Shown piece after piece: positions 1 through 45,428 of a stretch of 64,000 bases of DNA (position 1 is its first letter; each line of letters starts with the position of its first letter). The notes beneath the pieces were generated by a model, which searched no databases, was not told the DNA's origin, and worked only from the letters and a program-made list of their open reading frames with translations. Origin of the DNA: Stegostoma tigrinum (lineage: Eukaryota). Location: positions 20,358,629 to 20,422,628 of the forward strand of contig NC_081391.1 of assembly GCF_030684315.1 (NCBI RefSeq), written 5' to 3'. The position numbers were made by a program, and so were the translations under genes.

Positions 1-12
1 CACCATTATCAC

Positions 13-114
13 CATGGAGAGATAAACATAGGAAAAAGAAAGCACCAGGTTGATCTGCTTGTTAACAACACCCACACAGGCCTTGTGTTGGATCTGCCAC
101 ACTTGGGAGGGCAT
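13..114 (-). pseudogene. Exon 1 of a diverged ('D-type') ferritin copy; rest of gene lies left of the window
   Basis: 102-nt exon translating [34 protein letters not shown], followed by a GT donor. Ferroxidase E27 is replaced by V. Near-identical to exon 1 at 31874-31975. Confidence 0.85.
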
Positions 115-181
115 CTTCACTATTGCTGCTCACAATCACTTGAACAACTCTAGAACTAAGTCTCCCTACCACAAGCTCTTG

Positions 182-345
182 TATTTATACTCCTGGAAAA
201 CATCCTTCACCCAACCAGGAAATGTCATCACTAACAATGATTGGTTGTCAGAGATTGTCAATCAGGAATCTGCAAGAACCCAGGCACCAATGAACAAGGA
301 GAGGGGGTGTGGGGCAATGTGCTGAGACCCAGAGTCAACCAGAGA
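182..345 (-). promoter_or_regulatory. Ferritin proximal promoter (TATAAATA plus CCAAT-type boxes)
   Basis: TATAAATA at 182-189, 68 nt from the ATG, the same spacing as in the paralogues. ATTGG/CCAAT motifs lie upstream. Confidence 0.7.
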
Positions 346-1009
346 TTTGGGCAACAGTCAGGTTGAGATTATTATTCTGTGATAATGAGAGCACTTAGCC
401 TCTCAAGCCTGTTCCCCCATTCAACTGGATCAGTGCGAGTCTGTCTTTTCTTTGAATATCTTTGCCTGGGTTCTGCATCGCGTCATATTCTGAACTAACA
501 TAGCTCACCAAATCAGTTTTGAAATGTCCAAGGGGCTTGCAGAATGTTGGGAGTGATAATGTTATGTTTGAGATTAAGCATCATCACTGCTTACCATAGC
601 TTTGATCTGAAGATTATTCCCCCTTTTCCAGGATTATTTCGCCACAGGAAACAGTACATTGTCTAACGGCATGATTAGATCCATTAGGAATCCAAAGTAC
701 CTGGATAATGTTCGTTCTTGAGTCTTCCACAATCTTTCAAGGACAAGGCTAGTTGATGTAAACTGTATTCATAATGTAACCAGCTTGGGGCTGAGAAAAT
801 GCTGGTGAATCTGTGCTAAGGTTCCTCAAATAACCCTGTCAGAGCTCAGCACAGCGCTCCAAATGTGCTCTGATGCCACTTCTATGCTGTTGTATTACAA
901 CACATGCTGTTTTGTTGTCCAGCCGGCTTGGGGGAAAGTGAGCACGTTCTGGCCTTTTTAATTCGGCTTTCATATCTGCCCACTGCCACACGGTTATTAC
1001 GGTGCTGAT

Positions 1010-1605
1010 GGCGACCATTCAGCCCATCGTATCCACCACCAACTCGCTGAGCGTTTCACCTCTTGCCATTCTCCTGCACTGTCCCTGTAATCTCCATGTT
1101 ATTCCCTTCCAGATATCAGTCCTATTCCCTTTTGAATGCGTGAATTGAACCTGCCTCCAACACACTCTCGGACTATACATTTCACACCCTATCCACTCGC
1201 TGTGTTGGAAGGTTTTTATTTTTGCAGATCACTTCAGCTTCTTTTGCCAATTTTAAACCTGTGCCTTCTTGCTCCTGACCCTTTCACAAATGGGAACATC
1301 ATGCCACTGTTTGTTCTTTCTGGATCCGTATTTGCGCCGTTTGCTTTCCAGAGAGACAAGTCCCAGCCTATCCAATATATCCTCACACCTGAAATTCCTC
1401 ATTCCTGGAGCCATTCCAGGAAGCCTCCTCTGCACTCTCTCCAGTACGTCCACTCTTTCCTTCAGTGTGATGTGCAGAACGAGACACAGTATTCCTGTTG
1501 GAGTCAAACTTAAGCAGGTTCAGCATAATCACCTTGCTCTTGTACACTTGCCCCTACTAATAAAGCTCAGGGCACTGCGAGCTTTGTAAACGATTCTCTT
1601 AAACA
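1010..1605 (-). mobile_element. Degenerate CR1 LINE 3' fragment (continues at ~2990-3260 after a nested Penelope-like insertion)
   Basis: Minus-strand translation gives DVLERVQRRLPGMAPGM...LDRLGLVSLE, typical of the CR1 ORF2 C-terminus. A WQMKFN-like coding remnant lies near 3100-3140. Paralogous copies at ~13815-14412, ~32870-33468 and ~52070-52663. Confidence 0.75.
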
Positions 1606-1609
1606 GACC

Positions 1610-2985
1610 TCAGAGATAATGGGAACTGCAGGTGCTAGAGAATCTGAGATAACAAAGCGTTGAGCTGGATGAACACAGCAGGCCGAGCAGCATCTTAGGA
1701 GCACAAAAGATGACGTTTTGGGCCTAGACCCTTCATCAGAAAAGGGGGATGGGGAGGGAACTCTGAAATAAATAGGGAGAGGGGTAGGCGGACTGAAGAA
1801 GAATAGAGGAGAAGGTAGGTGGAGAGGAGAGTATGGGTGGGGAGGTAGGGAGGGGATAGGTCAGTCCGGGGAGGACGGACAGGTCAAAGGGGCCGGGTGA
1901 GGTTAAGAGGTAGGAAATTGAGGTGTGGCTTGAGGTAGCAGGAGGGTCTAGGTGAGAGGAAGAACAGGTTAGGGAGGCTGGGATGAGCTGGGCTGGTTTT
2001 GGGATGCAGTTGGGGAAGGGGAGATTTTGAAGCTGGTGAAATTCACATTGATACCATTGGGCTGCAGAGTTCCCAAGCGGAATATGAGTTGCTGTTCCTG
2101 CAACCTACGGGTGGCATCATTATGGCACTGCAGGAAGACCAGGATGGACATATTGTCTCAGGAACGGGAGGGGGAGTTGAAATGGTTCGCGACTGGGAGG
2201 TGCAGTTGTTTACTGCAAACTGAGCGTAGGTGTGCTGCAAAGTGGTCCCCAAACCTCTGCTGAGTTTCCCCAATGTAGAGGAAGCCATGCCGTGTACAGC
2301 AGATGCAGTATACCACATTGGCGGATGTGCAGGTGAACATCTGTTTGATGTGGAAAGTCATCTTGGGGCCTGGGATGGGGGTGAGGGAGGAGGTGTGGGG
2401 GGCAGGTGTAGCACTTCCTGCGTTGTAGCGGAAAGTGCTGGGTGTGGTGGGGTTGGACGGGAATGTGGAATGGATGAGCGTGGAGCGGACAAGGGAGTCG
2501 CGGAGAGAGAGTGGTCTCTCTGAAGGCAGACAATGATGGGGATGGAAAAATGTCTTTGGAAGTGGAGTTGGATTGTAGATGGTGGAAGTGTCGGAGGATG
2601 ATGATTTGTATCCAGAGGTTAGTGGGGTGGTATGTGAGGACGAGGGGGAATCCTCTTGGGGAAGTTATTGTGAGGGTGGTGTGTGAGGAAATAATTGCAG
2701 GAAATGCGGGAGACACGATTGAGGACATTCTCGCTCAAAACAAGGAGGAATTGGCAAGTGGCAGTCTTGGAAGAACGAAGACATTTGGGATGTGCAGGAG
2801 TGGAATGCCTCTCCTTGGAGCAGAGGCAAAGGAATTGGGAATAGGGGATGGAGTTTTTACAGGAAGGTGGGTTGGAGGAGGTGTATTCCAGGTAGCTGGG
2901 GGAAGTCGGTGGGCTCGAAATGGACATTGGTTTGTCGGTGGTTGCCTGCGATGGAGACAGGAAGGTGAGGAATGTGTTGGAGGTG
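1610..2985 (-). mobile_element. Penelope-like element (GIY-YIG endonuclease region plus 3' end with mutated hammerhead motif), 5'-truncated
   Basis: ORF fragments [37 protein letters not shown] and EQQLIFRLGTLQPNGINV match the PLE GIY-YIG domain. Frameshifted. Hammerhead core at 1712-1739 has GAAA changed to AAAA. Confidence 0.85.
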
Positions 2986-4393
2986 GCCCTTCCACGATGT
3001 AATGCAATTACACCATGCAGTTCACTCACTCCTGCACCCTCTTTAGAAATGCACCTTTTATTTTGTATTATCTCTACCTGCTTTTCCCACCATTTTTTCT
3101 GCTTTGAACTTCATCTGCCACTTGCGTGCCCATTCCACCAATATGTCTGTGCTCTTGTGAGGTTCTACACCATGGCCGTCACGCTAAGTTTCTTATCATG
3201 TACAAAGTATGAAATTGCATCTTTTATACCAAGGTCTAAGTCATTAGTTTGCTTTTGAAAAAGCCTGGTTCCTCCCCCTAACCCGTGGAACTCCACTACA
3301 AACCATCCCCCCCTCGTCCAGAGAGCATCCATTAGCAGCACTTCTGTTTCTAGTAATGAGTAACTCGTCAAAGTGACGAGCATCTACTCCTTCACTTGTC
3401 CCATTTGGAAAGTGAATGAAAAGCTGATGCAAAAGGACAATGCATCTAGAAGTTGTAGCCTCTCAGTGTTCATAATGTATTGAACCTACTAATTTCCAAT
3501 TTTGAAACTAGTCCTCAAGCAAACTTAAGAAATCTACTCCCCACCCAAGTCCCCTAACCTGCCATTTCTAAATGGATGCTGTATATGTTGCTTGGCTTCT
3601 ATTCAAGCAGAGCTTCAGAATGTTGGAGCTGAAAAAAGTTCACAAACAGGACCTCTCCTCCTCAGCAATTTCTGAACCCTGTTCCCCTGCTGAGAGCTTC
3701 ACTTCAGACAAACAAGAGGAAAAGAAGTGACCCAAACAATGATTGGCTGCTGTGCATATAAAAGCTATTGGGAGGTATGGAAGGGTAGGAAGTAAGAAGT
3801 AATGAGGAATCAGGTGGGGGTGGGGGCGTTGAAGAAGAAAGGCAGAAAAGCTTGGATTCCAACTCTGATTCCTTGAAATCATCCATCTGCTAAACCTCAG
3901 GGCCCAAAATTAAAAACAAAACAAATCCACAAGCTGCAGATGGGAAGGTGTGGGACAGCCCTTACAGTCTGCAAACTTAGAAAGAGTTTACTGACCCTTA
4001 CTGCTGTTGGAAAAAGGGTAGAGGAAGCACCTAGTGTCTAGTGTCATCCAGAGAAGAAAGTCCTAGCACTAAGTGGTACACACCTGGAAGGCTAATGTAA
4101 CACTAAAAGCAAACACCTCATGTACATTTTCATATGGCAAATTTGTATGTTCCATATGTGCACACAATTTAAGCTACCTTTGGAAGAAGCTATAGAAGTG
4201 AGTGAAATTTCCATTGTGGATTTTTTCAGTCAAGTTTCCTGGTTAGCTGTTGGTAATTTAGGTAGTTTTAAAACAAAGATCCAAAATCCAGTTCCACAAA
4301 TACTTGTATTTCCATTTGGAATGGCAGACAGAAAAAGGCAAAGTGTTTGTCAGAATTAGGTCACAAATGGACCAGTTTCTTCTATAACCCCAT

Positions 4394-6580
4394 TCAGCTG
4401 AGTGTGAGCTTGTCAAACAGGTACTCTCCCACACCATTGTCAGGGGCTCCCAGTCTCTTCAGGTTGGTGATGTGATCTCCCAGCTTCTTGATCATCTTCA
4501 CTTGCTCATCCAAGTAGTGCCTCTCCAGGAAGTCACACAGCTGGAGAAAGAAAAGAAATGAGTAGCTCACTAAACAGAAAGCATCTTGGTACTTCAAATG
4601 CTCTGTGCTATGTGAATAGGTACATTTAACCTCAAGGACCAATGCTTGATCACCTTCAGACAAAAAAAAGGAGAGAGATTGTGAAGTACTCACATGAGGG
4701 TCCTTGTGGCCAGAGGCGAGTTTGTGCAGATCCAGCAGACTCTGGTTCACATCCTTCTCCATCTGCAGAGCTCTCTGCATTGCCTCCAGACCATTGCCCC
4801 ACTCATCCTGCTCTGGCTTCTGGAAGAAGGGTTTTGTTAGTCAGAAGCTGCTATGGGCTTCTGTACTAGAACTAAAGGCTGTGCCTTTCAAGGCTAAAAA
4901 AGGCTTGAACCACATGTTGCAGATTGCCACCCTCCACTTTTGGAGAGAGGGGGGGGGCATAACCTGCCACATCTTAAACATAAAAGAAATTCGGAATCAA
5001 TGCACATGTGATGTTAGTGCTGGAGCTTAAGTGCCTGATGCAGCGTTTGAAGTCAGTCGCTCCCCCATACAAATGGGGAATTGTTGGAGTCAGTGAAGTA
5101 CTAGACTATCCTACTGCCTAGTCAGTTCCAGCTGCAAATAAGGGAATGCAAAGCAAAATGTTGCATTGCCCTAAGTGACTCCGGCCCGGATGTTTCCAAT
5201 GGTCAATCGTTTAAGACCACCAGGATGATAGTGAAAAATCACTGGGCACTACAGTTGAATGAAACCTCAAACTCCTTTGCCATTTGAGCATTTTAGAATT
5301 CAATTAAATTCCTAAACACCACCCTATCCATGTGGATGGAAACCTTGGTTAAGAAACCAAGCAGGTTTCTTAAAACCATGAATTTAAGTCAAGTACAGGT
5401 CATACAGAGGAGTGCTCATCTCAATCAATTGTTTCTGATCACTCCACGAGCTCCATTGGATTAGAAAAAGCCAACAAAAACATTTCAGCCCATGCACTTG
5501 AACAGGTGCAGAATCAAGATACAGGCTATCCAAAACAGGCTTCTGTCAAAGTAAACCCTCAAGCTTTCCCCTTTTAAATTAAACAGGGGGGTTAAAAGCC
5601 CAACCTTGATGTCCTGCAGGAGGACTCGGCCTCCACGTTTATTCTGGAATGCCATCAGTTTCGCAGCATGTTCCCGTTCCTCATGGGACTGCTCCTTGAA
5701 GAACTCAGCAAAGTGTCGCAGGGCAACATCGTCCCTGTCAAAGTGAGAGAGCTGTGGAGGGAAGGATTGGACAGGAATCAATTAAAGTAGACCCAGAAAT
5801 TCTAAAAGCCAAGGGCTTGGTTACTCATTCTCTACCTGGCTTCAAGTTAGAGACTTGGAATTTCAGTCAAATATATTGGCCTCAGCTAGTTTGAAATCTA
5901 GTCATTTCTGACCACATGCAACCCCCATCCTTGTGTTTGGGGGATCATGTTAGGAAATAGTAGATGTTAAGAGGCCAGAGACAGCAGTAATTTTTGCCTT
6001 AGCATTCCACTTACTCTACTTAATGCCACAAAGACTTGCTTCCCTCACTCATCAGGGAGGTGGTACAGAAGAACCATCTGAACAGCCCAGCATTGACTCC
6101 TCACATGGATTAGTGATGTCAGTTCAGGTAAGAAAGATCTAGTCAGTTTTGGGGGCAGTGAAAACAAGATTGATCAGCTAGTTTCTCACCCCAAGACAGC
6201 CTCAACATTCAGTTTTACCATTAGAGTAAGGAATTAGATTGCTCATGTGGACTAGAATAATTCTTGTTGTCAAACCCACAGACACCTCAGATTTAGCCAG
6301 TTTAAAAGAACACGACAATGACAAGTTAGACAACAGACTTGTATCACAATTTACTTGGCAGGGGAGGCAGAGATTAGAATTAACCCTTAAATTACAGGTC
6401 ACTAACACCAGAACTTGTTGCTCAGAATAGTGAATTATTAATAACTTTGAAAAAGTACCCAGAAGATACAGCACTCACCATGGAGAGGTAAACATAGGAG
6501 GAATAGAGCTCCAGGTTGATCTGCTTGTTAACAGCATCCTCACAGTCCTTGTGGTAGTTCTGACACACTTGGGAAGCCAT
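4394..6580 (-). CDS. Ferritin heavy/middle-subunit-like gene, intact, 173 aa (copy A1)
   Basis: Exons 6479-6580, 5605-5751, 4694-4819, 4394-4540, all GT-AG and phase 0. Protein [62 protein letters not shown].../[26 protein letters not shown].../[27 protein letters not shown]...KLTLS*. Ferroxidase residues retained. Confidence 0.95.
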
Positions 6581-6647
6581 TGTCACTATTCCTGCTCACT
6601 ATCACGTAAACAAGTCTCATACTAAGCCTCAGTACCATATGCTCTAG

Positions 6648-6815
6648 TATTTATACTCCTGGGACATCCTATGTTCAACGAGGGAATGACATCACCAATG
6701 ATGACTGACATTCCCTGAAAGCCAATTAGGAATCTCCCATGAATTTAGCCCCGCCTCTGCCCTCCCACCAATTAGAGAGAGGGTGTGGGTGTATGAGGCA
6801 GAGCTGATCAGAGGT
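6648..6815 (-). promoter_or_regulatory. Promoter of ferritin A1: TATA box, CCAAT array, TGACATCA, NF-kB-like site
   Basis: TATAAATA 6648-6655; TGACATCA 6687-6694; CCAAT at 6695, 6722 and 6768; GGGAGATTCC on the minus strand at 6729-6738. Nearly identical blocks at 24626-24790 and 45496-45660. Confidence 0.75.
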
Positions 6816-7079
6816 GCAGATTGTTGTCAAGTCTGGATGGTTATTCTGTGATTGGATCAGCAGTCGGTCATTTAGAATCTCCAATCTGCTGGAACTCTCT
6901 ATCGGGTCATGGTTAGTTTGAAAAAAAAACTAGATTTGGATTTGGAAAGCTTTTCTTTCTAAGCTTGTTGTGACCAACTGCAAGAGGTGCTCAATGAAGG
7001 AGAATCAGTTTCTGCTGGGATCTTGGAGAGAAAGGTAGGAGATTGGTGGTAGTTCCTAGAAATTTGAAACAGAAACAAA

Positions 7080-7860
7080 CAGGACAAAGACAGGAAGGAT
7101 GTTTCTGATGACCAATGTGCCCAGAACCAAGGGTCGCTGTCTAAGGATATAGAGTAGTCTGTTTGGGATTGAGATGAGGAGAAATGTCTTCAGCCAGACA
7201 GTGGGGTGTCTGTTGTATTGTCTGGGACAGGAAACAGTTGAAGCTAAAATACTGAAGGTTTTGAAGAGTTAGATGTAGCTGATAGGGCTATGGGGATCAA
7301 AGGGTATGGAGAGAGAGTGTGAAGAAGGTACTGAGTTAAGGGATTACCCATGATCATATGGGATGTCAGAGCAGGCTGGAAGGGCTGTATCAAAATGGTT
7401 CATAATTTTGAACATTTCAATCAGGTGATCTTTTAATCTTCTCTGCTCCAAGGAGATAAGGCCAATTTTTAAAATCTTTCCTGGTATCATTCCAGCAAAT
7501 CTCCTTTGCACCGTGTCCAGGGCTTTAATGCCGTCCCGTAGAAACAGTGCCCAGAATTGAACACAATACTCTAATGCGGTCTGACCAATGGTGTGTAGTG
7601 GTGTAGCGTTACTTCTTTGCTTTTATACTCTCGGGCTCTCCTTAAAAACACAAGATTCCTATAAGCATTCTTCATGACTGTTTCATCTTGCCTGGCCACC
7701 TTCAGGGAATTGTAGTTTTAAATCCTGAGGGCTCTCTGCTCCTGTACTCACCTTGACGTTGTTCCATTGAACCTGTATTATCTCTTCATGTCTCCATGTT
7801 TCTTCGACCAAAATGCATTTCTTGCATTTTTTTGTGTTGAAATTATAAAGTGATTGCCAA
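7080..7860. mobile_element. Two old CR1 fragments (plus-strand 3' end ~7080-7390; minus-strand ORF2 piece ~7420-7860)
   Basis: The plus-strand piece resembles the 3' end of the young CR1 at 26690-27000. The minus-strand piece has an LEYCVQFW-like coding remnant near 7545-7575. Paralogues at ~25060-25830 and ~45940-46700. Confidence 0.65.
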
Positions 7861-7924
7861 CATCAAATCTTACCCAATAAAAATCAAATGATCCTAATTT
7901 TGAAGTCTTCAACTGACACCCCAC

Positions 7925-7943
7925 GTGTGTGTGTGTGTTTTTA

Positions 7944-7976
<33 letters not shown>

Positions 7977-7978
7977 GT
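7925..7978 (+). repeat. Interrupted (TG)n microsatellite
   Basis: Directly visible. Much shorter at the paralogous sites near 25925 and 46785. Confidence 0.95.
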
Positions 7979-8919
7979 CCACTATCCACTATCCCTTCTG
8001 TGAAGAAGCTGTTTCTGACATTATCCTGGACAGTTTAGCACTAATTTGAAGATTCTATTTCCATTCCAGACCCTACGTCCTAGATGACCCATTGAGATGA
8101 AACAATTCCTCTCAAGCTACCCTGTCAAATCCACGAATGCTCTTAAAACTTTCAATTACCGCCATCTCTTAACCTTCCATACTGAGGGACTCGGGCAAGC
8201 TGCCATCATCATTTAACCAGCTCTTTATCTCTGAGTTGATTCTGGAAATTCCCTGCTGCACCATCTTCAGGCCCAATCTGCCGAAAATGAGATCTCCAGA
8301 GGTGGTTGAACCAGAATGTGACAATTTCACAAAAAAACCTCCACCCAGGGGTGTTCAAATCCCTTTGAGATCAGGACTGACATTGAATTATTTTCTTTGT
8401 TCAGTGTTTTTATATCTCGTCACTAGTTTCAATACATTTTTGTCCACTTGTCTCAGTTTCATTTTGATCATTAGTTTTGACAACCCAGCAGAAGATGTTC
8501 CCATTTCTAAAATACTCTGGCTCATCTTTCTTGGTCAGAAGTGGATAACTTCACACTTCCCCTTATTGAACTGTATCAGCCAGTCTTCCCAACTCCATGG
8601 AAGTTTGAAACATTCTCCTGCCATGATAAAGTGCCACTTGATGTAATGCCATCAGCAAATATTTGAATTGAGGCAGTCCATTTCTTCATCTGTAACATTT
8701 ATAATCCAAGGAAAAGTTAAGGCCCCAGCTTCGCTCCTTGGGGAAAGTAATCACATCTTGCTTTTTCTTTTATTACCTCATGGGGTGAACGTTTTGTTGG
8801 CTGGCCCACTTCCCTAATTATTATTGTCTTCTTGAATTGCTGTTGTCCATTTGGTGCAGGGAGATCCATAATGCCATTTTGGACAGAATTCCAGGATTCA
8901 GATGGTATGACTGTAGATT

Positions 8920-9140
8920 GAGTTTTGCCTCATGAGCTTCATTGAGTATTTTGAAGAAGTGATGAAGAGCAATGATGAGGGCAGAGTGGTGGGAGTGATC
9001 TACATGGGCTGTAATGAAGCGTTTGACAATGTTGCTCACAGTAAGCTGTTTAGCAAAGTGAGATCACATGGAATCCAGGGAGAATTATCCATTTGGATAC
9101 AGAAATGGCTCAAAGGTGGAAGGCACAGGGTGCCGGTAGA
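8920..9140 (+). mobile_element. CR1 reverse transcriptase fragment
   Basis: IEYFEEVMK..DEGRVVGVIYM..NEAFDNVAHSKLFSKVRSHGIQGELSIWIQKWL..RHRV matches the CR1 RT region around DFSKAFDKVPH. Paralogues at ~27966-28188 and ~47750-47970. Confidence 0.8.
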
Positions 9141-9142
9141 GG

Positions 9143-9990
9143 CAACAAAGTGTGGAGCTGGAGGAACACAGCAGCCCAGGCAGCATCAGAGGAGCAGAAA
9201 AGCTGATGTTTCGGGTTGAGACCCTTGAGAAACTGGGAGGGGGAAGGGGAAGCTCAGAAATAAAGAGGAGGGGTGGGACTGGGAAGGTAGATGGGATGGT
9301 GATGGGTGAGTGCAGATCGGGAGTGGTCAGTGAGGTGGGAAAAGAAGATGTACATGAACAGGTCAAGGAGTTGGGGATTGGTCATGGGATTAGGAGACTT
9401 GAGGTTAATAAGGTTCACATTTAGTGTCTTGGGCTGTAAGCTCCCAAGGCAGAATGAGGTGCTACTCCTCCAGTTTGCGAATGACATTGGTGTGATACTG
9501 GAGGATACCCAAGGTGGACAGGTCAGCCATGGATTGGTAGGGGGGGAAAAGAAGTTAAAACGTTTTGCGATTGGAAAATATTGTTTGTTGCTCATTGAGC
9601 ACAGATGCTCTTGAAAAACTGTCTCCCTCATGGTGGCTACATTGGGTGCAGCCGATACAATAGACCAACTTCAAACAGGTGCAGGTGATCTGTGTCTGAT
9701 GCCGAAGGTTTGTTTGTTTTTGTTCTGAATGGAGACACGGGCTGGATGTGGTGGTGGGGCGCCGAGGGTGTCAGGGAATGGTTTAGCTGTTCCTGCAGTT
9801 GCAGGGAACAGGGCTGGGGTTAATGGGGAGTACAGAGTGGATGAGGGAGTGGCAGGGATACAAGCGTAGAGGTACTGGGGTGTCCACAGTAAGAGGGGCT
9901 ATGCCTGCTTCTGTGGGATATGTGGAACAGTCCCTCTTCTGCTGCTACACTGGCATTATCCCCTGCCTGTTCCTTACTCAAAGATTAACA
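9143..9990 (-). mobile_element. Older Penelope-like element with an inverted RT fragment at its 5' end
   Basis: Minus strand: degenerate GIY-YIG C-terminus (FCLGSLQPKTLNV) and a decayed hammerhead 3' end near 9200-9230. Plus strand ~9895-9990: VGYVEQSLF..YTG.IP.LFL, which is PLE RT sequence just before YIDD. Paralogues at ~28189-29060 and ~47972-48820. Confidence 0.7.
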
Positions 9991-10148
9991 GTAAATAGCC
10001 AGCTACATTGCTGTGTGGGTGGTGAGTCAGCTGTCGGCCAACTGCTTTCCTTCCCTGAAAGGGTGAAAAAAGTTTAGAACTGTTGACAGTTGGCCTTTCT
10101 GCAAATTGAGTGAAGTGTCTCTGCTACTCTGACCCACCCCCCCACTGA

Positions 10149-10213
10149 AGCCTCGAGGCAATGAAGGGAACTCTGCAGATAAAGAAGGTGAACCAGAGGC
10201 TCCTGGATCTCCT
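10149..10213 (+). pseudogene. Plus-strand relic of ferritin exon 3
   Basis: GAGGCAATGAAGGGAACTCTGCAGATAAAGAAGGTGAACCAGAGGCTCCTGGATCTC aligns to exon 3 ([20 protein letters not shown]). Better preserved copy at 29259-29327. Confidence 0.7.
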
Positions 10214-11145
10214 TCTCTGCAAATGTAGCTTTAATTGCACCAGCTGTCCTCAGCAGTTGATTGCTGGAGCAAGAACAGGGACTATGCCACATTTGTCCCA
10301 CACGCTACAAGGTGGGCATTGAGGATAGGACACACTGTTACAGGAGAGAGCAGATTCCTCACACAGTCTCCTACAGTAGAGACTTGTTAGAAAATCCAAT
10401 TCCTTAGCTTGGGAAACTAGAACAGTGGTGTATTGCTTGCTCAAAGAAGCATGGAACAAAAGCAACCTGCATGCCAGATGCTATTGCTGTTACAGTCTTA
10501 AGGAATATTTTGAATGCTTAGATTCTACCAGTAAAGTTAACAGAAGATTACTGGCAAAACTGAGGCCTGGCAGTACCTGGGGACAGACTTCAGTTGTGGA
10601 GTCGCCAGACTCAAACATTAACTGGTTTAATCAACACACATCCAGAGTTCCACCTGCACCTATCCCGCCACTCCCCAACCCCAATTTTTATTTTGTATGA
10701 ACCCAGCTTTTCGGAAAGTTGGAGTATTGCTAGGGAGAGGGCACCAGTTAAGTGGCTAACAGTTAGACAGAGTGGAGCAATTTTGGTCAAGCTATTCGCG
10801 AGAGACTACTCTTACAGAATTGTCACAGTGAGGACAAGACAGATAGTGAGCATTGCGAACAAGCCAAAAGCTTAACAGTTGTGATTTCCACAACAATTAC
10901 TCACTTCAAAAATTCTTCTGACTCTGGATTCAGAAACTGAACAAAAATTGCCAGGGCAAGCATCGATTCAATGCAGAGAGCAAAAAGCCGAAGGGATTTA
11001 ATAATCAGATAATAAACAGCCAAATAAATGAAGCAGTCACTCAAAGTCGTCAGATACATGGGCAATGTTTTCATTGACTTTTTTGTGCACTCTGCACTTG
11101 CACTAGAACACCAGTGTACATGAAATGGAGTTGTTGAATCCCCAT

Positions 11146-12920
11146 TCAGCTCAGGCTGAGCCTGTCGAACAGATACTCTCCTTTGCCCTTCTGAGGGGCT
11201 CCCAGTCTCTTCAGGTTGGTGATGTGATCTCCCAGCTTCTTGATCATCTTCACTTGCTCATCCAAGTAGTGCCTCTCCAGGAAGTCGCACAGCTGGAAGA
11301 CAAGACAAGTTAGTTGAGTCCATTGAAGACATATGGAAGTGACCCTTAATTCAGATTTAACAAATCACCACCATGTTGAGGGAGAGGGGCACTCTGGTGA
11401 TGCGTTTGGACTGTTGTAGATTTAACAGTCTGCAGGAGGCAGTTATGAGATAATTGTATTCCCCCTCCCCCCAGGAGCAGACAAACAGATCACTTTCAGG
11501 TTGGAAACATTCATCTTTCCTGTAATTTGAAAGTCATCCTGGTAGTTTGTTGCTCTAAAGGCCATCAGCCCTACATGCTGAATTTAGCAGTGAAAGGCCA
11601 GGGAGCTTCTTGGAGAGAAAGTGAGGAACTCACATGAGGGTCTGTGTGGCCAGAGGAGAGTTTGTGCAGATCCAGCAGACTCCGGTTCACATCCTTCTCC
11701 ATCTGCTGAGCTCCCTGCATTTCCTCCAGACCATTGCCATGGTCAGCCTTCTGAAGTGGCAGCGTGGGGGTGGATGGTAAGAGACAAGACACATCACTTA
11801 AAACGCAAGAAACCAGTGAAAAAAGCAACAAGATCTCCATCCCATTAAGAGAGTGTACAACAGCTAAGAGATTATATCCAAAGCATTAAAATGAAATACT
11901 GTTCTAGGCTTAAAGAGGTCTTCATCAGGACAAGATCACATTCCATTAAAACCAACCTTGATGTCCTACAGGAGGACCCAGCACCCACATTCATTCTGGA
12001 ATGCCATCAGTTTCTCAGCATGTTCCCATTCCTTCAAGGAGTAGTCCCATGAGAACTCAGCAAAGTGACACAGGCAACATCTTCCCAGTAAAAGTAAAAG
12101 GATTGTAAACAGGGAAGCCCATTGGGGTTTGCTGTTGAAGATCCTTCTCTACTTGAAATGCTTCTTCAGTCAGGCCTGCAGGTTCTGGAAGGGAAATCCT
12201 CCCTTGTAAATCACAACAAAAACAACACCAGAATATGTGGAGGTTCTTTCCTTGTAAAGCAGGAAGGAAGGGAAACAAGCATCTTCCTACAAGTTGCGGG
12301 GGGGGGCGTGAATATTTCATACTTGACTCCAAATATTAAGCATTAAATGACACCTCATCATTCTGAAAGTCCATATGGTTAAGTGAAAATGGCTCAGCTT
12401 CAGTGAGGAAACCTTCCAACACAGAACAGAGTTCCCCACTCTGAAGTGAACTTACAAAGCTTACTAGTAAAGTATTGACAGCAAATAGACCCAGAGATTG
12501 AGAGTGTTCCTCCCTCTGGGATTGGAGGTCTAGGGTCACATATGTTCTAGAAGTAAGAGATCAGGTCTCTGGGCAAATTGACTTACTCTAACTATTCAAT
12601 AGAATAAATCCAATTACATTGAACAAAAAGAAAAACAAACAGACTTCTCAGGTCATACATCAAGATCAAACCATTGAAAGATTATTCACTTCTCAAGGTC
12701 AGGGGAAGGCCACAGAAGATTCTAACATGAATTGAATGATGCAGAGAGATCCTACACCCACAATACAAGGAGACCACAGCTTTAAATCTGAAATAAATCC
12801 AGAGAACACCACAATCACCATGGAGAGATAAACACAGGAAAAAGAAAGCACCAGGTTGATCTGCTTGTTAACAACACCCTCACAGTCCTTGTGGTAGCTC
12901 TGATGCACCTGGGAGGCCAT
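11146..12920 (-). pseudogene. Ferritin D-type copy D1, probable pseudogene (exon 2 destroyed)
   Basis: Exon 1 12819-12920 is open with E27V. The exon 2 remnant (~11957-12102) has an in-frame TAG at 11966-11968, indels and no AG acceptor. Exon 3 11634-11750 has a 9-nt in-frame deletion. Exon 4 11146-11292 is intact. TATA at 12988-12995. Confidence 0.88.
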
Positions 12921-14415
12921 CCTCACTGTTCCTGCTCACAATCACTTGGACAAGTCTAGAACTGAGTCTCCCTCCAACAAGCTCTTGTATTTATACTCCA
13001 GAGAACATCCTGCACCAACCAGGGAATGACATCACTAACAATGATTGACAATCTCTGACAGCCAATCAGGAATCTGCAAGAACCCAGTCACCAATGAACA
13101 GAGGAGAAGGAGAGTGGGGCAATGTGCTGAGACCCAGAGTCAATCAGAGATTTGGGCAACAGTCAGGTTGAGATTATTATTCTGTGATAACGAGAGCACT
13201 TAGCCTCTCAAACCTGTCCCCTAATTCAACTGGATCGGTGCGAGTCTGAGTCTTCATTTAATACCTTTGCCTGGGTTCTGCATCGCATCATATTGCGAAC
13301 TAGCACAGCTCAACAAATCAGTTTCGAAATGTCCAAGGGGCTTGCAGAATTTTGGGAGTGATACTGTAATGTTTGAGATTAAGCATCATCACTGATTACC
13401 ATAGCTTTGATCTGAAGATTATTCCCCCTTTTCCAGGATTACTTTGCCACAGGAAACAGTACATTCTCTAACGGCACGATTAGATCCATTAATAATCCAA
13501 AGTACCTGGATAATATTCGTTCTCGAGTCTTCCACACTCTTGCAAGGACAAGGCTAGTTGATGTAAACTGTATTCATAACGTAACCATCTTGGGGCTGAG
13601 AAAATGCTGGTGAATCTGTGCTAAGGTCCCTCAAATAACCCTGTCAGAGCTCAGCACAGCGCTCCAAATGTGCTCTGATGCCACTTCTATGCTGTTGTAT
13701 TACAACCCATGCTGTTTTGTTGTCCAGCCGGCTTGGGGGGAAAGTGAGCACGTTCTGGCCTTTTTAATTCGGCTTTCATATCTGCCCACTGCCACACGGT
13801 TATTACGGTGCTGATGGTGACCATTCGGCCCATCGTATCCACCACCAACTCGCTGAGCGTTTCACCTCTTGCCATTCTCCTGCACTGTCCCTGTAATCTC
13901 CATGTTATTCCCTTTCAGATATCAGTCCTATTCCCTTTTGAATGCGTGAATTGAACCTGCCTCCAACACACTCTCGGACTATACATTTCACACCCTATCC
14001 ACTCGCTGTGTTGGAAGGTTTTTATTTTCGCAGATCACTTCAGCTTCTTTTGCCAATTTTAAACCTGTGCCGTCTTGCACCTGACCCTTTCACAAATGGG
14101 AACATCGTGCCCCTGTTTGTTCTTTCTGGATCCGAATTTGAGCCGTTTGCTTTCCAGAGAGAAAAGTCCCAGCTTCTCCAATATATCCTCACACCTGAAA
14201 TTCCTCATTCCTGGAGCCATTCCAGTAAGCCTCCTCTGCACTGTCTCCAGTACGTCCACTCTTTCCTTCAGTGTGATGTGCAGAATGAGACACAGTATTC
14301 CTGTTGGAGTCAAACTTAAGCAGCTTCAGCATAATCACCTTGCTCTTGTACACTTGCCCCTACTAATAAAGCTCAGGGCACTGCGAGCTTTGTAAACGAT
14401 TCTCTTAAACAGTCC

Positions 14416-15760
14416 TCAGAGATAATGGGAACTGCAGGTGCTGGAGAATCTGAGATAACAAAGTGTAGAGCTGGATGAACACAGCAGGTCAAGCAGCATT
14501 TGGGCCTAGACCCTTCATCAGAAAAGGGAGATGGGGAGAGAATTCTGAAATAAATAGGGAGAGGGGTAAGCGGACTGAAGAAGAATAGAGGAGAAGGTAG
14601 GTGGAGAGGAAAGTATGGGTGGGGAGGTAGGGAGGGGATAGGTCAGTCCGGGGAGGATGGACAGGTCAAAGGGGCCAGGTGAGGTTAGTAGGTAGGAAAT
14701 GGAGGTGTGGCTTGAGGTAGGAGGAGGGGCTCAGTGAGAGGAAGAACAGGTTATGGAGGCTGGGACGAGCTGGGCTGGTTTTGGGATGCAGTGGGAGGAG
14801 GGGAGATTTTGAAGCTGGTCAAATCCACATTGATACCATTGGGCTGCAGAGTTCCCAAGCGGAATATGAGTTGCTGTTCCTGCAACCTATGGGTGGCATC
14901 ATTATGGCACTGCAGGAGGACCAGGATGGACATGTTGTCTCAGGAATGGGAGGGGGGAGTTGAAATGGTGCACGACTGGGAGGTGCAGTTGTTTACTGCG
15001 ATCTGAGCGTAGGTGTTCTGCAAAGTGGTCCCAAGCCTCTGCTGCATTTCCCCAATGTAGCGGAAGCTACACCGTGTACAGCAGATGCAGTATACCACAT
15101 TGGCGGATGTGCAGGTGAACATCTCTTTGGTGTGGAAAGTCATCTTGGGGCCTGGGATCGAGGTAAGGGAGGAGGTGTGGGGGCAGGTGCAGCACTTCCT
15201 GCGGTTGTAGCAGAAAGTGCTGGGTGTGGTGGGTTTGGACGGGAGTGTGGAGCAGACAAGGACGTCGCAGAGAGAATGGTCTCTCCGAAAGCAGACAATG
15301 GTGGGGATAGAAAAATGTCTTTGGTGGTGGAGTTAGATTGTAGATGGCAGAAGTTTCGGAGGACGATGCGTTATATCCAGAGGTTAGTGGGGTGGTATGT
15401 GAGGACTAGGGGATCCTCTCGGGGAAGTTATTGCGAGGGTGGTGTGTGAGGGATGAGTTGTGGGAAATGCGGGAGACACGATTGAGGACATTCTCGCCCA
15501 CTGCAAGGGGGAAGTGGCGGTCCTGTAAGAACGAGGACATCTGGGATGTGCAGGAGTGGTATGCCTCTCCTTGGAGGAGATGGGGCAGAGGCAAAGGAAT
15601 TGGGAATAGGGGATGGAGTTTTTGCAGGAAGGTGGGTCGGTTGAGGCGTATTACAGGTAGCTGTGGGAGTCGGTGGGCTCGAAACGGACATCGGTTTGTA
15701 GGTGGTTGCCTGCGATGGAGACAGAAAGTCCAGGAAGGTGAGGGATGTGTTGGAGATGGT
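14416..15760 (-). mobile_element. Penelope-like element nested in CR1 (paralogue of 1610-2985)
   Basis: ORF fragments VVYCICCTRCSFRYIGE and EQQLIFRLGTLQPNGINV. The GAAAC part of the hammerhead is deleted near 14500. Confidence 0.85.
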
Positions 15761-17449
15761 CCTTCCACCTTCAATGATGTAATGCAAATACACCATGCAG
15801 TTCACTCACTCCTGCACCCTCTTTAGAAATGCACCTTTTATTTTGTATTGTCTCTACATGCTTTTCCCACTTTGAACTTCATCTGCCACTCGCTTGCCGA
15901 TTCCACCAATATGTCTGTGCCCTTTTGAGGTTCGACACCATGGTCCTCACTCTTATTTTCTTATCATGTACAAACTCTGAAATTGCATCCCTTATACCAG
16001 GCTATATGTCATTAGCTAACTTTAGAAAAGCCTGGCTCCTCCCCATAACCCATGGAACTCCACTACAAACCACCCCCTCGTCCAAAGAGCATCCATTGGC
16101 ATCACTTATGTTTCCAGTAATGCAGCCAACTCCATATCCCTGTCACTGCGCTGCCGTTCATTACAGGGGCTTGAACATTGTGTGGCACTGTATTATATGT
16201 CTTTAGGAAGCCCACGTAGACCACACGAACAACAGCCCTCTCGCCTATCTCCTCAAAATACTTGTGCTAGATAGTTGAAAGTGATTTTCCTTTTGAGGAG
16301 ATCTGGCATGGATCTCAGAAAAGATTCATATTCATCCATGTATCTATTACGCAATTTTCAACTCATCTCCATTACTTCCTATCTTCCACTCCCCAGCATC
16401 ACTCATGGAAATGCCAGGCGTCTACTCCATCACTTATCCCATTTGGAAACAGAATGAAAAGCTGATGCAAAAGGACAATGCATCGAGAAGTTGTTGCCTC
16501 TTCTCAGTGTTCATAATTTATTGCAGCTACTAATTTCCAATGTCAAAACAATTTCTCACACAGATATAAAAGATCCACTCCCCACCCAAGTCCCCTAACC
16601 TGCCATTTCCACATACATGCTGTATATGTTGCTTGCCTTCTATTGAAGGAGAGCTCAACAATGTTGGAGCTGAAAGAGTTTGCAAATAAGACCTCTCCTC
16701 CTCAGCAATTTCTGTACCCTATTCCCCTGCTGAGAGCTTCACTTCAGACAAACAAGAGGAAAAGAAGTGACCCAACCAATGATTGGCTGCTGTGAACATG
16801 AAGCTATTGGGAGGTATGGAAGGGTAGGAGGGGATAAGTAGTAATGAGAAATCAGGGGGAAAGAGGGGGGTGGTGTTGAAGAAGAAAGAAGGAAGACAAA
16901 AAAAATGCTTTGAATCCAACTCTGCTTCCTTTAAATCATTCATTTGCTAACCCTCAGTCCCCAAAAGAAACAGAACAAGTCCACAAGCTGCAGATGGGGG
17001 CAGCCTTTGCAGTCGGCATACTTCGAAAGAGTTCACTTGACCCTTGCTGCTGTTGGAAGGAGGGCAGAGGAAGCACCTAGTGTCTAATGTCGTCCGGAGA
17101 ATAAAGTCATGTCACTAAGTGGTACACACCTGGAAGGCTAATGTAACGCTAAAAGGAAAGGGGAAACGCCTCGTTTACAAATTTGCCATGAATAAAACGT
17201 ACGTTCCATATGTGCATGAAATTTATGCTACCTTTAGAGGAAGATATAGAAGTGTGTGAAATTTCTATTGTGGATTTTTTCAGTCAAGTTACCTGGTTAG
17301 CTGTTGGTAATTTAGGTCGTTTAAAAAAACAAAGATCCAAAATCCAGTTCCACAAAGACTTGTATTTCCATTTGGAATGGCAGACAGAAAAAGGTAAAGT
17401 GGACATCAGAATTAAGTCACAAATGGACCAATTTCTTCTATAACCCCAC

Positions 17450-19683
17450 TCAGCTGAGTGAGAGCCTGTCAAACAGGTACTCTCCCATGCCATTGTCAGG
17501 GGCTCCCAGTCTCTTCAGGTTGGTGATGTGATCTCCCAGCTTCTTGATCATCTTCACTTGCTCATCCAGGTAGTGCCTCTCCAGGAAGTCACACAGCTGG
17601 AACAAGGAGCCAGAATGTAATGTTAGAGCAGACACATCAACAATCACACCATTGCGCTTTTGCAGTGATATAAGTGTGAACAAGTGCTGGTATTTGAGAG
17701 CAGCTTGCTCTCCAGAAACAATGAACAGACTGGAATAGCTTTATTTGCAACTTTGCAAATGCAGAAATGGTGACAGAAACCTGAGTTTACCCACCAGGGA
17801 TCAAACTGCCATTTCACAGAATTGGGTGGAAGTTCTAAACACTTACGCCTCTCACCAAGTCAGCAAAGCACATATCAGTGACTGACATCTATGTTCAGGA
17901 TGGCTGCTGCTCTCAAACACTGGGACAATAGCAAGCCTATGCTTGTAGAACAGGAATAGCAGATTCCCATGTCACCTTGAGCTCCCTCGAGACATGCATC
18001 CCATCAGGAACTCACATGAGGGTCCATGTGGCTAGAGGTGAGTTTGTGCAGATCCAGCAGACTCTGGTTCACATCCTTCTCCATCCGCAGAGCTCTCTGC
18101 ATTGCCTCCAGACCATTGCCCCACTCATCCTGCTCTGGCTTCTGGAGGGAGAAGACAGTCATTAGTGAGGTTAGAAGGTCCAAGACTCGTACAAAGGCAA
18201 GAAAATGAAGACATGTGGTAATCTGTGCCATATCCAAACCAAGGATTAATAACAATTCACAATTCACAGAAGGTCATGGAGACCATTATCAGACATTTGA
18301 TCCATCATTAAGAACTGCTGACAGATCAGGGCTAAAGACTGAAACATTGGGATGAAGTTACCTGTATTCAGGCTAGTCTACAGTAATGTATCAGTCTAAA
18401 CTGTCATTGGGGCAAGTTCAGTGCTAAAACCCTTTCATTCTGATTTGTTGATCTTTCAGAAAAGGAAAGAATTAGCAAAACCAACTCACATCAAGCAGAG
18501 ACTTTCTATCAAGACACCTCACTCATCTCAACACAAGATGTACAGGGGAGTCTGGAACACCAAGGCCATTGCACAAGCAAGAAACAACACAATTTGCATT
18601 TACTACAAGAGATAGACCCCAACCTTGATGTCCTGCAGGAGAACACGGCCACCACGTTTATTCTGGAATGCCATCAGTTTCTCAGCATGTTCCTGTTCCT
18701 CATGGGACTGCTCCTTGAAGAACTCTGCAAAGTGACGGAGGGCAACATCATCCCGGTCAAAGTAAGAGAACTGTAAGCAGAAGGGAACAGAAGGCAAGAC
18801 TAAAATTTCATCACCAGCTAAAAGAGTAAAATAGTAAGCTATTTAACAACTGACTGTATCACAAGTCACTTAAAAAATAAACAGGTGACAATTGATCACA
18901 GCATTGATGTTACACATCATCTCCAGACAAACATTCCTCTCCTCCTTCCCCCACCACCCTACTCAAGTCAGCAACACTAGCTCCTCCCCAAAAGGAACCC
19001 AATAATTAGAGACTATAATATAATCTAATACTGTAATTGCTTCATGGAAACATCCAGTATTAAACATGGACATGAACATTAGACTTTTCCTGACACCATA
19101 CACTTCAGAACATAAAAGACAGAGGAGGATGCTAACCAATTGTGCAGTAAGGCTCAGCAGTTAGCACTACTGCCACACAGTGCCAGGGACCAGGGTTTGA
19201 TTAAAACTGTGCATGTGAAGTTCACACATTCTCTCCAAAGATGTGGGTTTCCTTTCACTGCCCATATATGGGCAGATGATGTTGACCAGCTATGCTAAAT
19301 TGCCCATAGTGGCCAGGGCAGGTGGGTTAGCCATGAGAAGTGCAGGGTCACAAGGGTACAGTAGGTGGGAGTGCTCTTGAGATGGACTCAATTGGACAAG
19401 TGACCTATATCTACATTATGCAGATGCTAATGATTATGATACCCAGCCAAAGAGAACCACTCTCAGAAGGAGTAATTTAGATTTCAACACTCTGCTTATT
19501 AAAGAGGAGAACTTCTAGGTCTTATCAGATTTACATTTGAATGCATTGTCTCATTTTACAATGCAGACAATCAAGCCTCACCATGGAGAGGTAAACATAA
19601 GAGGAATAGAGCTCCAGGTTGATCTGCTTGTTAACAGCATCCTCACAGTCCTTGTGATAGTTCTGACACACTTGGGAAGCCAT
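17450..19683 (-). CDS. Ferritin heavy/middle-subunit-like gene, intact, 173 aa (copy B1)
   Basis: Exons 19582-19683, 18624-18770, 18016-18141, 17450-17596, GT-AG, no stops. Carries SHEEQEH. TATAAAGA at 19751-19758 and CCAAT boxes at ~19798, 19811, 19840 and 19876. Confidence 0.95.
19143..19430 (+). mobile_element. Degenerate tRNA-derived HE1/V-SINE-like element in intron 1 of B1
   Basis: tRNA-like head GGCTCAGCAGTTAGCACTACTGCCACACAGTGCCAGGGACCAGGGTTTGATT, followed by V-domain-like segments (GTGAAGTTCACACATTCTC, ATGCTAAATTGCCC). Confidence 0.65.
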
Positions 19684-20509
19684 CTTCACTACTCCTGCTC
19701 ACTATCACCTCAACACCTCCAGAACTGAACTCCTTTCCTACGAACTCTTTTCTTTATACTCCTGGGTCATCCTGCAATCAACCAGGGAATGACACCACCA
19801 ATGATGACAGCCAATGAGGAATTGGCATGCATCCAGGCACCAATGAGGGGAATGGGGTGGAGTGAGATACTCAGAGCCAATCAGTTTTGAAATGGCAGCA
19901 AATCTGTGATTGGTCCCAGGAGCTGAAGGAAGCCTGAAGGTGACTGGGGGCCAAAAGCAATGTGTTGACTTTTATCTTGCTTCTGGAATGGGGTCAGGCC
20001 ACTCGGCCTAACAGCAATTATGAATGGATATCAGTGGTTGGCATCATTAGCAACAGCCATATTCTATGAAATGACTGAAACAAAACTCACTCCAGGGCCA
20101 AAATCAGAGTAATATACTCCACATATAGTATATTCTGTACTGCATACAATATTGACATAGCCTGTACATTCTAGTCCTCTCCCTCCATCGAGATGATGAC
20201 TAAACTGCTGTGAGCCTTTTCAGTTCAATTTTGCTGCAGACTGTGAGTTTTTAAGTCATTTCTACACATTGTATCCTAACTCTGTGCTTTTCTTCAGTTC
20301 CTAGCTCTGTTGCTTTGACAAAACTCTCATTTATCTTGGTGCAAGTTTGCTTTTCCTCACATGTTATTGATGTTGTTGATAATATTCTGCCTGTTCATGG
20401 TACTATCGTGCCAACTAATAGAATGCCATCAGGAAGCGTGAGAGAGATCTCTATTCTTTTGTCAATGTCACATGGAAATATATGGACGTCAGAGGACCCT
20501 GTGGGGAAG

Positions 20510-22423: not shown

Positions 22424-24558
<2,135 letters not shown>

Positions 24559-25942
24559 CTTCACTATTCCTGCTCACTATCACCAAGAAAACTCTAGCAC
24601 TAAGCCTTTGTACCACAATCTCTGGTATTTATACTCCTGGGACATTCTACGCTCAACGAGGGAATGACATCACCAATGATGACTGACATTCCCTGAAAGC
24701 CAATTAGGAATCTCCCATGAATTTCGTCCCCCTCTGCCCTCCCACCAATTAGAGAGAGGGTGTGGGTGTATGAGGCAGAGCTGATCAGAGGTGCAGATTG
24801 TTGTCAAGTCTGGATGGTTATTCTGTGATTGGATCAGCAGTCGGTCATTTAGAATCTCCAATCTGCTGGAACTCTCTATCGGGTCATGGTTAGTTTGAAC
24901 AAAAAACTAGATTTGGATTTGGAAAGCTTTTCTTTTTAAACTGAGCTTGTTGTGACCAACTGCGAGAGGTGCTCAATGAAGGAGAATCAGTTTCTGCTGG
25001 GATATTGGAGAGAAAGGTAGGAGATTGGTGGTAGTTCCTAGAAATTTGTAACAGAAACAAACAGGACAAAGACAGGAAGGATGTTTCTGATGACCAATGC
25101 GCCCAGAACCAAGGGTCACTGTCTAAGGATATAGAGTAGACTGTTTGGGATTGAGTTGAGGAGAAATGTCTTCAGCCAGACAGTGGGGAGTCTGTTGTAT
25201 TCTGTGGGAAGGAAACAGTTGAGGCCAAAAGACTGAAGGTTTTGAAGAGTTAGATGTAGCTGATAGGGCTATGGGGATCAAAGGGTATGGAGAGAGAGTG
25301 TGAAGATGGTACTGAGTTAAGGGATTACCCATGATCATATGGGATGCCAGAGCAGGCTGGAAAGGCTGTATCAAAATGGTTCATAATTTTGAACATTTCA
25401 ATCAGGTCATCTTTTAATCTTCTCTGCTCCAAGGAGATAAGGCCAATTTTTAAAATCTTTCCTGGTATCATTCCAGCAAATCTCCTTTGCACCATGCCCA
25501 GGGCTTTAATGCCCTCCCTTAGAAACAGTGCCCAGAATTGAACACAATACTCTAATGCGGTCTGACCAATGGTGTGTAGTGGTGTAGCGTTACTTCTTTG
25601 CTTTTATACTCTCGGGCTCTCCTTAAAAACACAAGGTTCCTATAAGCCTTCTTCATGACTGTTTCATCTTGCCTGGCCACCTTCAGGGAATTGTAGTTTT
25701 AAATCCTGAGGGCTCTCTGCTCCTGTACTCACCTTGATGTTGTTCCATTGAACCTGTATTATCTCTTCATGTCTCCATGTTTCTTCGACCAAAATGCATT
25801 TCTTGCATTTTTTTGTGTTGAAATTAAAAAGTGATTGCCAACATCAAATCTTACCCAATAAAAATCAAATGATCCTAATTTTGAAGTCTTCAACTGACCT
25901 CCCCCCGCCCCCCCGCCCCGCCTGTGTTTGTGTGTCCACTAT

Positions 25943-38441: not shown

Positions 38442-38506
38442 CTTCACACCTACTTACAAAAAGCAAACTCAAACAACAGCCTAACCCCACCTCCCATGAG
38501 CTCTAG

Positions 38507-38660
38507 TATTTATGTGAATGGGAATCTGCATTCCAACAGGAAATGTTATCACCAATAGTGCTTGGCTATTAGGGATTTCCAATCAGGAAGCTCCCATGAA
38601 TACAGGCATTAATTAGGGGGAAGTGCTGGTGGGAGCTATGTACAAAGCAGAGCCAATCGG
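38507..38660 (-). promoter_or_regulatory. Distinct promoter type of A2 (CATAAATA, CCAAT boxes, kB-like sites)
   Basis: CATAAATA 38507-38514; CCAAT at ~38552, 38579 and 38653; GGGATTTCC 38572-38580; GGGAGCTTCC on the minus strand at 38586-38595. Inverted paralogue at ~60395-60546. Confidence 0.65.
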
Positions 38661-39039
38661 TTCATGAAGGCAGCTGAACCCCACCTTCTCAAGGGGAATC
38701 TAGCAATGTACAATAAATGCTGGCCCAGCCCATGACTGCCCTTGTCCTGCAAGTGAATACTCAAAAAAATTACAGTGCCGTAGGAGGACGCTTGGTCAAT
38801 TGTGCTGCACCAGATCCATTGTGCTCATCTCTTGCCATGTCCCTGCACATCACCACGATCCCAAAAGAAAACCCAATGTTCTCTTCAAAGCTTCAATTGT
38901 ACCTGCCTTCCCCACATCTCCAGGCAGCACATTGCACAAACTCTCCACATTCTGTGTAAAAATGTTTTTTTTCTCACTTCACCCTTGCTTTGTTTGCACA
39001 TCACTTTAACTATCCCCTCACGTATCTACTTTTTAAAAT

Positions 39040-42619: not shown

Positions 42620-45428
<2,809 letters not shown>

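Follow-up and report, generated by a model that had tools for sequence, protein, structure and literature searches.

Tandem ferritin genes of the zebra shark lack an iron-responsive element and in part share promoter sequence with a second, L-like ferritin array

The window, that is, the whole stretch of 64,000 nucleotides of zebra shark DNA that was analysed (positions 20358629-20422628 of contig NC_081391.1, here C50), contains 11 ferritin first exons. Five of them belong to intact four-exon genes (ATG at 6580, 19683, 24558, 38441 and 45428), while the remaining ones are decayed copies or an orphan exon. The features are as follows, in window coordinates, beginning with the gene whose ATG lies at 6580.

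6581-6625, minus strand: predicted 5′ leader of ~45 nt without an iron-responsive element (IRE), its start placed 30 nt downstream of the TATA box
6649-6655, minus strand: TATA box TATAAAT, 68 nt before the ATG at 6580
6682-6694, minus strand: promoter block TGATGTCATTCCC, common to the second (L-like) ferritin array, from promoter alignment
6695-6772, minus strand: three CCAAT boxes (6695-6699, 6722-6726 and 6768-6772)
4394-6580, minus strand: intact ferritin gene, 173 aa, full ferroxidase centre
6580-6479, 5751-5605, 4819-4694 and 4540-4394, minus strand: the four exons of this gene; the introns are also skipped in contigs from related species
13-189, minus strand: decayed first exon, TATA at 183-189, no exon-2 match; the remainder of the copy falls outside the window on the left
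11146-12995, minus strand: broken ferritin copy, IRE-less leader, exon 2 decayed with a stop, splice sites lost
17450-19758, minus strand: intact ferritin gene, ATG 19683, TATAAAG at 19758-19752, IRE-less leader
22424-24633, minus strand: intact ferritin gene, ATG 24558, IRE-less leader
30218-32050, minus strand: broken ferritin copy, ATG 31975, IRE-less leader, exon 2 decayed
36253-38514, minus strand: intact ferritin gene, ATG 38441, CATAAAT at 38514-38508, IRE-less leader
42620-45503, minus strand: intact ferritin gene, ATG 45428, IRE-less leader
49979-51246, minus strand: broken ferritin copy, ATG 51171, IRE-less leader, stops in exon 2
55450-55946, minus strand: orphan exons 3 and 4, close to where gene orientation switches, no exon-1 or exon-2 match
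60539-60713, plus strand: orphan first exon with a CATAAAT box, ATG 60612
60926-63155, plus strand: broken ferritin copy, ATG 61003, IRE-less leader, deletions and a stop in exons 2-3

Measured from the end of the box to the ATG, a TATA-type box lies 68 nt upstream in eight of the 11 copies, 66 nt upstream in two (both with CATAAAT boxes) and 70 nt upstream in one, exactly the 66-70 nt that the earlier note had given for all 11. The 11 copies are recent duplicates, and thus are not independent observations. Gene orientation switches at 55450-60713, with orphan exons 3 and 4 on one side, an orphan exon 1 on the other and a short exon-4 fragment beside the switch (56554-56601); this segment is likely an inversion breakpoint. 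Similar ORF fragments recur in the window at 367/32228, 8917/47746 and 12904/51155 (1-19700 versus 31900-51300), and LINE-type reverse-transcriptase-like fragments, recognised from ORF translations, are located between the ferritin copies (25898-26926, 8917-9216, 27963-28262 and 47746-48045). The recurrence of multi-gene repeat units together with interspersed repeats shows that blocks of several genes, with the pseudogenes among them, are duplicated as the array grows.

The window lies within a ferritin array (array 1) that extends from ~19.99 to 21.56 Mb of C50 (1.57 Mb). The closest relatives of the window ferritins are shark ferritins, and close relatives carry PF00210 and ferritin names. 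Exon mapping over 160 neighbouring 10-kb stretches gave 205 exon-1 and 243 exon-4 matches; 202 of the first exons lie in array 1, and the other three belong to divergent genes shortly past its end, these counts being lower bounds because some bases read N. By a strict test (ATG, all splice sites and no stop), 121 of the 202 copies are intact and 81 are not. The intact genes comprise 108 distinct coding sequences and 103 distinct proteins, and have four exons and three introns with GT-AG boundaries, encoding 173-176 aa. Array 1 is divided into six orientation blocks and shows much birth and death of copies. An assembly artefact is ruled out by the distinctness of the intact coding sequences (108/121) and proteins (103) and by large clusters in distant sharks. 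In particular, protein clusters at 90% identity with 127, 138 and 180 members, represented by Chiloscyllium, Pristiophorus and Heptranchias, point to ferritin expansions in these lineages. A small contig, C216, carries at least 24 array-type first exons (24 of the 150 exon-1 matches listed); no IRE was found at the two C216 loci scanned, and the contig may be an unplaced part of the array or a second haplotype.

Ferroxidase residues E27, Y34, E61, E62, E107 and Q141 (human H numbering) are present in all 121 intact genes of array 1, and H65 in 120, and the intactness filter made no selection on these residues. The intact genes are of H/M type and are predicted to be ferroxidase-active. The pN/pS ratio is 0.31 over 800 random pairs drawn from the 108 distinct coding sequences, within a range of 0.31-0.41 that is not very low, and 62 of the 173 protein columns are invariant. 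Judged by their sequences, the intact copies are working ferritin genes under purifying selection. Two skate proteins of the array-1 clade (P0080 and P0084) have lost ferroxidase ligands (E61D and H65Q, with E62G in one), which may mean that catalytic status is not the same in all lineages.

We searched for IREs with a script that requires a canonical CAGUGN loop, a five-pair stem and a C bulge, one stem mismatch being allowed in the last 150 nt. None of the 11 window leaders contains such a structure, in agreement with the earlier note. The same is true of all 202 first exons of array 1, both in the last 150 nt (0/202) and in the leaders with the upstream 5 kb (0/202), the span that the note had proposed to scan. 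Two broken copies carry a bare CAGTGA, without a stem, 8 nt before the ATG (12920 and 51171). The whole 1.65 Mb gave four strict matches, versus 0-1 in each of three shuffles; one belongs to a separate IRE gene, and three lie >100 kb from the next same-strand first exon. With Rfam at E ≤ 10, the entire window gave five weak matches, none to an IRE family. Likewise, a covariance model (R1) built from the genome's two IREs and run over the window and 159 of the 160 10-kb stretches found only the IRE gene past the end of the array, all other matches having E ≥ 1. Both the script and R1 recover the two IREs of the genome; R1 matches them by construction, having been built from them, and the independent control is Rfam RF00037. 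A decayed IRE in the short leader was also considered and rejected, as there is no local similarity between array promoters or leaders and the upstream DNA of either IRE gene.

The earlier note had held that all ferritin copies appear to lack an IRE and that the family has escaped iron-dependent control. This stands for the array copies, which are IRE-less in their DNA, but not for the family as a whole: two single-copy genes carry canonical IREs, which refutes an escape of the whole family from the IRPs. Specifically, RF00037 finds at least two matches in the genome above its 34-bit cut-off, at 43-44 bits (C20:18051249 and C50:21609424), a lower bound since 82 candidates were scored. A 22-nt IRE-core pattern run over the whole genome finds the same two exact matches, and three further ones with two mismatches, against two in the control. 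The C50 IRE gene lies ~53 kb past the end of array 1 and has a predicted 144-nt leader with a cap-proximal IRE, while a bestrophin gene is found 40 kb away from the C20 IRE gene. Human FTH1 also has a bestrophin neighbour, so the C20 gene fits FTH1. The C50 gene, which we infer to be an M-type gene, was not assigned to the FTL locus; a strict first look found no glycogen synthase gene on C50. The array-1 protein is 73% and 74% identical to the products of the two IRE genes, and the deep nodes of the tree give no resolution between the M/L and H lineages for the array proteins. That two single-copy genes keep canonical IREs suggests a division of labour between paralogs, in which these two likely perform ordinary iron-responsive housekeeping.

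Further divergent ferritin genes lie near array 1. An intron-containing gene on the plus strand at about 21.591-21.602 Mb of C50 (L188:8860-9129) has a CpG-island promoter, no canonical IRE and an Arg/Leu-rich N-terminal extension of ~58 aa, which is also retained in the whale shark, bamboo shark and catshark proteins. The extension resembles a mitochondrial targeting peptide, and the gene is possibly a non-retroposed mitochondrial ferritin. A single divergent gene on the minus strand (C50:21570741-21580354), between array 1 and the IRE gene, has a TATA box and no IRE, and is likely catalytically impaired by E61K and H65Q. Intronless ferritin-like matches with internal stops on C11, C2, C5, C43 and C17 are likely processed pseudogenes.

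Across array 1, 151 of 202 copies, among them 93 of the 121 intact genes, have a TATA-type box 48-72 nt before the ATG; by the pattern used, the other 28 intact genes have none. A CCAAT box occurs within 250 nt in every intact gene (121/121, versus 59 expected from shuffles). For the 93 intact genes with a recognisable TATA box, the leaders predicted from its position are 25-49 nt long with a mean dG of −6.6 kcal/mol, compared with 144 nt and −25.1 kcal/mol for the C50 IRE gene, and 16 of the 93 contain an upstream ATG. The array-1 promoter is CpG-poor (observed/expected 0.14). As the copies share ancestry, these promoter features are not independent observations.

Contigs from four runs presumed to be RNA, from two related organisms, were aligned to window positions 4200-7400; since they are assembled contigs, start sites, expression levels and tissues cannot be read from them. 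In contig X1, all four exons are joined across the predicted introns; it matches 6479-6602, running colinearly into the leader for 22 nt and ending 6 nt later, 28 nt before the ATG. Contigs X4 and X5 join exons 1-3, X4 extending to 6592 and X5 including an additional 38 nt. Among the aligned contigs, no joint to an exon farther upstream is listed, and none of them covers sequence upstream of 6660, so that they have no bearing on a start there. The contigs fit a short colinear leader. Because the genome contains intronless broken ferritin copies, a spliced contig is not by itself proof of transcription.

A second array (array 2), reached via a divergent database protein, lies at 12.99-14.40 Mb of C50, 5.6 Mb from array 1, and comprises roughly 170-180 copies (200 genome-wide pattern matches versus 19 in the control). 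No IRE was found in the 30 first exons checked, the first 30 copies from one end of this array, and in most of these the TATA box lies 70-103 nt before the ATG. A conserved CAGCTG E-box, a motif linked to oocyte promoters, occurs in 22 of the 30 (2 in shuffles). The proteins of arrays 1 and 2 are 72% identical. Array 1 retains E62, and E62K is found in all three array-2 exons 2 analysed (3/3) and in six database proteins from five shark genera. E62K is reported to abolish ferroxidase activity in FTHL17 (PMC7760355), and the array-2 subunit is L-like and predicted to be non-catalytic.

The proximal promoters of the two arrays are related. The block TGATGTCATTYCC is present in both arrays, 33-38 nt before GAGTATAA, and the shared promoter block occurs in 27 of the 30 array-2 copies but in only 27 of the 121 intact array-1 genes. 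In comparisons of proximal promoters between arrays, 276 of 900 pairs score above the shuffled 99th percentile, against 63 control pairs of distal DNA and 35 of intron 1 at the same threshold. Against the DNA upstream of the IRE genes, neither array's promoter gives an alignment (maximum 30 against a threshold of 32). That the two arrays have a promoter block in common, to which the IRE genes show no relation, suggests that the promoter was swapped once in an ancestor, and the simplest history would be a single replacement of promoter and leader before the two types split, rather than decay of an IRE in place. Both protein types form an elasmobranch clade, with support of 83/81 and 84/92 in two trees, below the usual threshold; the 83/81 tree was computed from 33 of 49 rows, 16 redundant or long-branch rows having been dropped.

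Array-1 genes share with vertebrate cytosolic H and M/L ferritins the four exons and three introns, the length of 173-176 aa, the absence of a leader peptide and the complete ferroxidase centre, but differ from them in having no IRE, a short predicted leader, an unrelated promoter and more than 120 intact tandem copies. Array-1 genes are, in short, cytosolic-type vertebrate ferritins without the IRE. In salmon, the H1, H2 and M1-M3 ferritins are all reported to carry IREs (PMC4117605). The two zebra shark arrays have the characters of an elasmobranch ferritin cluster: more than 100 tandem copies and two subunit types, shared across sharks. For the Greenland shark, a preprint counts 155 FTL and 179 FTH1 copies, gives their age as at least 250 My, and describes clusters syntenic with white shark, the largest of which has ovary-specific expression (10.1101/2024.09.09.611499). 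As reported there, those clusters resemble the zebra shark arrays in having hundreds of copies in few clusters, two types, mostly full length, old and spread across distant sharks; unlike the two zebra shark arrays, 5.6 Mb apart, both types are counted in one cluster, and ovary expression is demonstrated there, whereas it is putative for the zebra shark arrays. Orthology to the Greenland shark cluster is presumed, since its sequences lie outside our tree and none is among the 120 homologs listed. The main text of the preprint does not contain 'IRE' or 'iron' and does not treat leaders, promoters or ferroxidase residues (10.1101/2024.09.09.611499); a second Greenland shark preprint does not mention ferritin.

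IRE-independent ferritins are known from other systems. The yolk ferritin of the snails Lymnaea and Biomphalaria is reported to have no IRE (PMC10799875). Like array 1, which is IRE-less in its DNA and predicted leader and for which an egg role is proposed here, it is egg-linked and exists beside an ordinary ferritin; unlike the shark proteins, it is described as secreted, with a signal peptide and a 42-aa insertion (PMC10799875). Array-1 proteins contain neither, the ferritin fold beginning at once, and the cell in which they are stored would therefore also have to make them. The shark arrays may therefore work like yolk ferritin while standing outside that family, and would have originated independently. 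Schistosome ferritins reportedly have no IREs either, and FTHL17 is not known to carry one. The latter is described as germ-cell expressed, with six mouse copies and E62K, the same change as in array 2, whereas the window copies keep E62; FTMT, also outside IRE/IRP regulation, is described as an intronless mitochondrial retrogene with no TATA or CCAAT box, whereas the shark copies have introns, TATA and CCAAT boxes (PMC7760355). Tandem amplification of ferritin in fish is also reported for the hadal snailfish, but with 14 fthl27 copies, broad expression and a role in lowering ROS on overexpression, and that report does not mention IREs (PMC10746142). Ferritin is reported to be abundant in vertebrate ovaries and amphibian eggs (PMC1488847). 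Shark ferritin expansion, its link to the ovary and IRE-independent ferritins (FTMT and snail yolk ferritin) are thus already known. A literature search, thin on subscription journals, returned no report of IRE loss in shark ferritin arrays, and the IRE loss, the shared promoter and the pairing of catalytic and non-catalytic types appear to be undescribed.

We consider it probable, by a modest measure, that the IRE-less array-1 genes, of which at least 121 are intact and one carries the leader at 6581-6655, supply the ovary with large amounts of ferritin and are controlled by transcription alone, with the IRE genes performing housekeeping. Short leaders, IRP-independent translation, ovary expression, subunit co-assembly and egg iron stocking are the parts of this reading that we infer, and the ovary expression, borrowed from the Greenland shark, is likely for the zebra shark arrays. 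The sequence of events could be as follows. An elasmobranch ferritin duplicate would have gained a new compact promoter and a short leader in place of the IRE leader, and would then have split into catalytic and non-catalytic subunit types, each of which multiplied through unequal crossing-over as copies were gained and lost. The short, weakly folded, IRE-less leader would be translated even with IRPs active, so that the amount of ferritin made would rise with the number of copies and the activity of their promoters. Subunits of both types would come together in H/L-like 24-mers, which in large yolky oocytes or in follicle tissue would take in iron and curb oxidative damage. Of the roles suggested by the earlier note, control by transcription and copy number is supported as likely by the absence of an IRE from the DNA (0/202), tissue-specific bulk expression fits the published ovary-specific cluster, and immune iron withholding finds no evidence here.

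Three other readings bear on this assignment. The transcripts might carry an IRE or another IRP site after all, through a farther start, a non-coding exon or a non-canonical stem-loop. The leaders are predicted from the TATA position, and an AG directly before the ATG in 99 of the 121 intact genes might mark a splice acceptor; however, the sequence upstream of it is purine-rich (34% pyrimidine) with no pyrimidine tract, and the AG is not conserved, being absent in 22 of the 121, so that we rejected the acceptor. With a looser set of non-canonical IRE loops, 15 of the 202 copies match within 150 nt, but 14 of these matches lie at −71 to −100, upstream of the predicted start, and the fifteenth, at −17, has one mismatch and no lower stem. 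Together with the absence of a canonical IRE within 5 kb of any of the 202 copies, its absence from the 1.65 Mb except for the separate IRE gene, and the spliced contig colinear into the leader, this makes a concealed IRP site very improbable.

Alternatively, the IRE loss could be real and the copy number largely neutral, an outcome of unstable turnover by unequal crossing-over in which few copies matter. The 81 of 202 copies that fail the intactness test, the orphan exons, the six orientation blocks and the pN/pS of 0.31-0.41 are all compatible with such turnover. We nevertheless regard it as unlikely, since ferroxidase residues are near-invariant in the 121 intact genes under a filter blind to them, and large clusters exist in distant sharks, with an expansion reported to be at least 250 My old. 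It is also conceivable that the copies without an IRE serve in somatic tissue, where stress or infection would induce them to withhold iron or defend against ROS, in the manner of snailfish fthl27, whose overexpression is reported to lower ROS (PMC10746142). The catalytic residues are intact, and the spliced array-type contigs come from runs of two related species with source tissue unspecified. ETS-like motifs occur in 84 of 121 promoters (16 expected) and CRE-like motifs in 36 of 121 (3 expected). Against this, ARE-like motifs fall below shuffles (7 versus 29), MREs are at chance level (26 versus 21), and the sole tissue statement found, for the Greenland shark, is ovary-specific; an inducible somatic role is, in our estimate, decidedly unlikely.

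Bulk ovarian production controlled by transcription would give a regulatory explanation for a published oddity, namely that sharks have ferritin genes in the hundreds: once released from the IRPs, the copies would deliver ferritin in bulk through transcription and dosage, while the two IRE genes would maintain homeostasis. Loss of the IRE of human L-ferritin leads to hyperferritinaemia-cataract syndrome, so a vertebrate in which roughly 300 or more copies have no IRE must restrict them closely to particular tissues. The arrays also caution that automatic 'FTH1/FTL' labels mislead for the shark array copies. More tentatively, and with less than even confidence, we propose that sharks and rays evolved a vertebrate 'yolk ferritin' by a single ancient swap to an oocyte-type promoter (CCAAT/E-box/TATA) that took away the IRE, a catalytic/E62K split and amplification of each type to more than 100 copies, for iron-independent loading of the egg. 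If so, the H/L heteropolymer would have been re-invented, a second origin of a catalytic/non-catalytic subunit pair, and giant eggs would be loaded with iron-storage shells independently of cellular iron, in a vertebrate parallel to the yolk ferritins of invertebrates. The arrays also provide a direct test of the means by which large elasmobranch eggs acquire their iron and store it.
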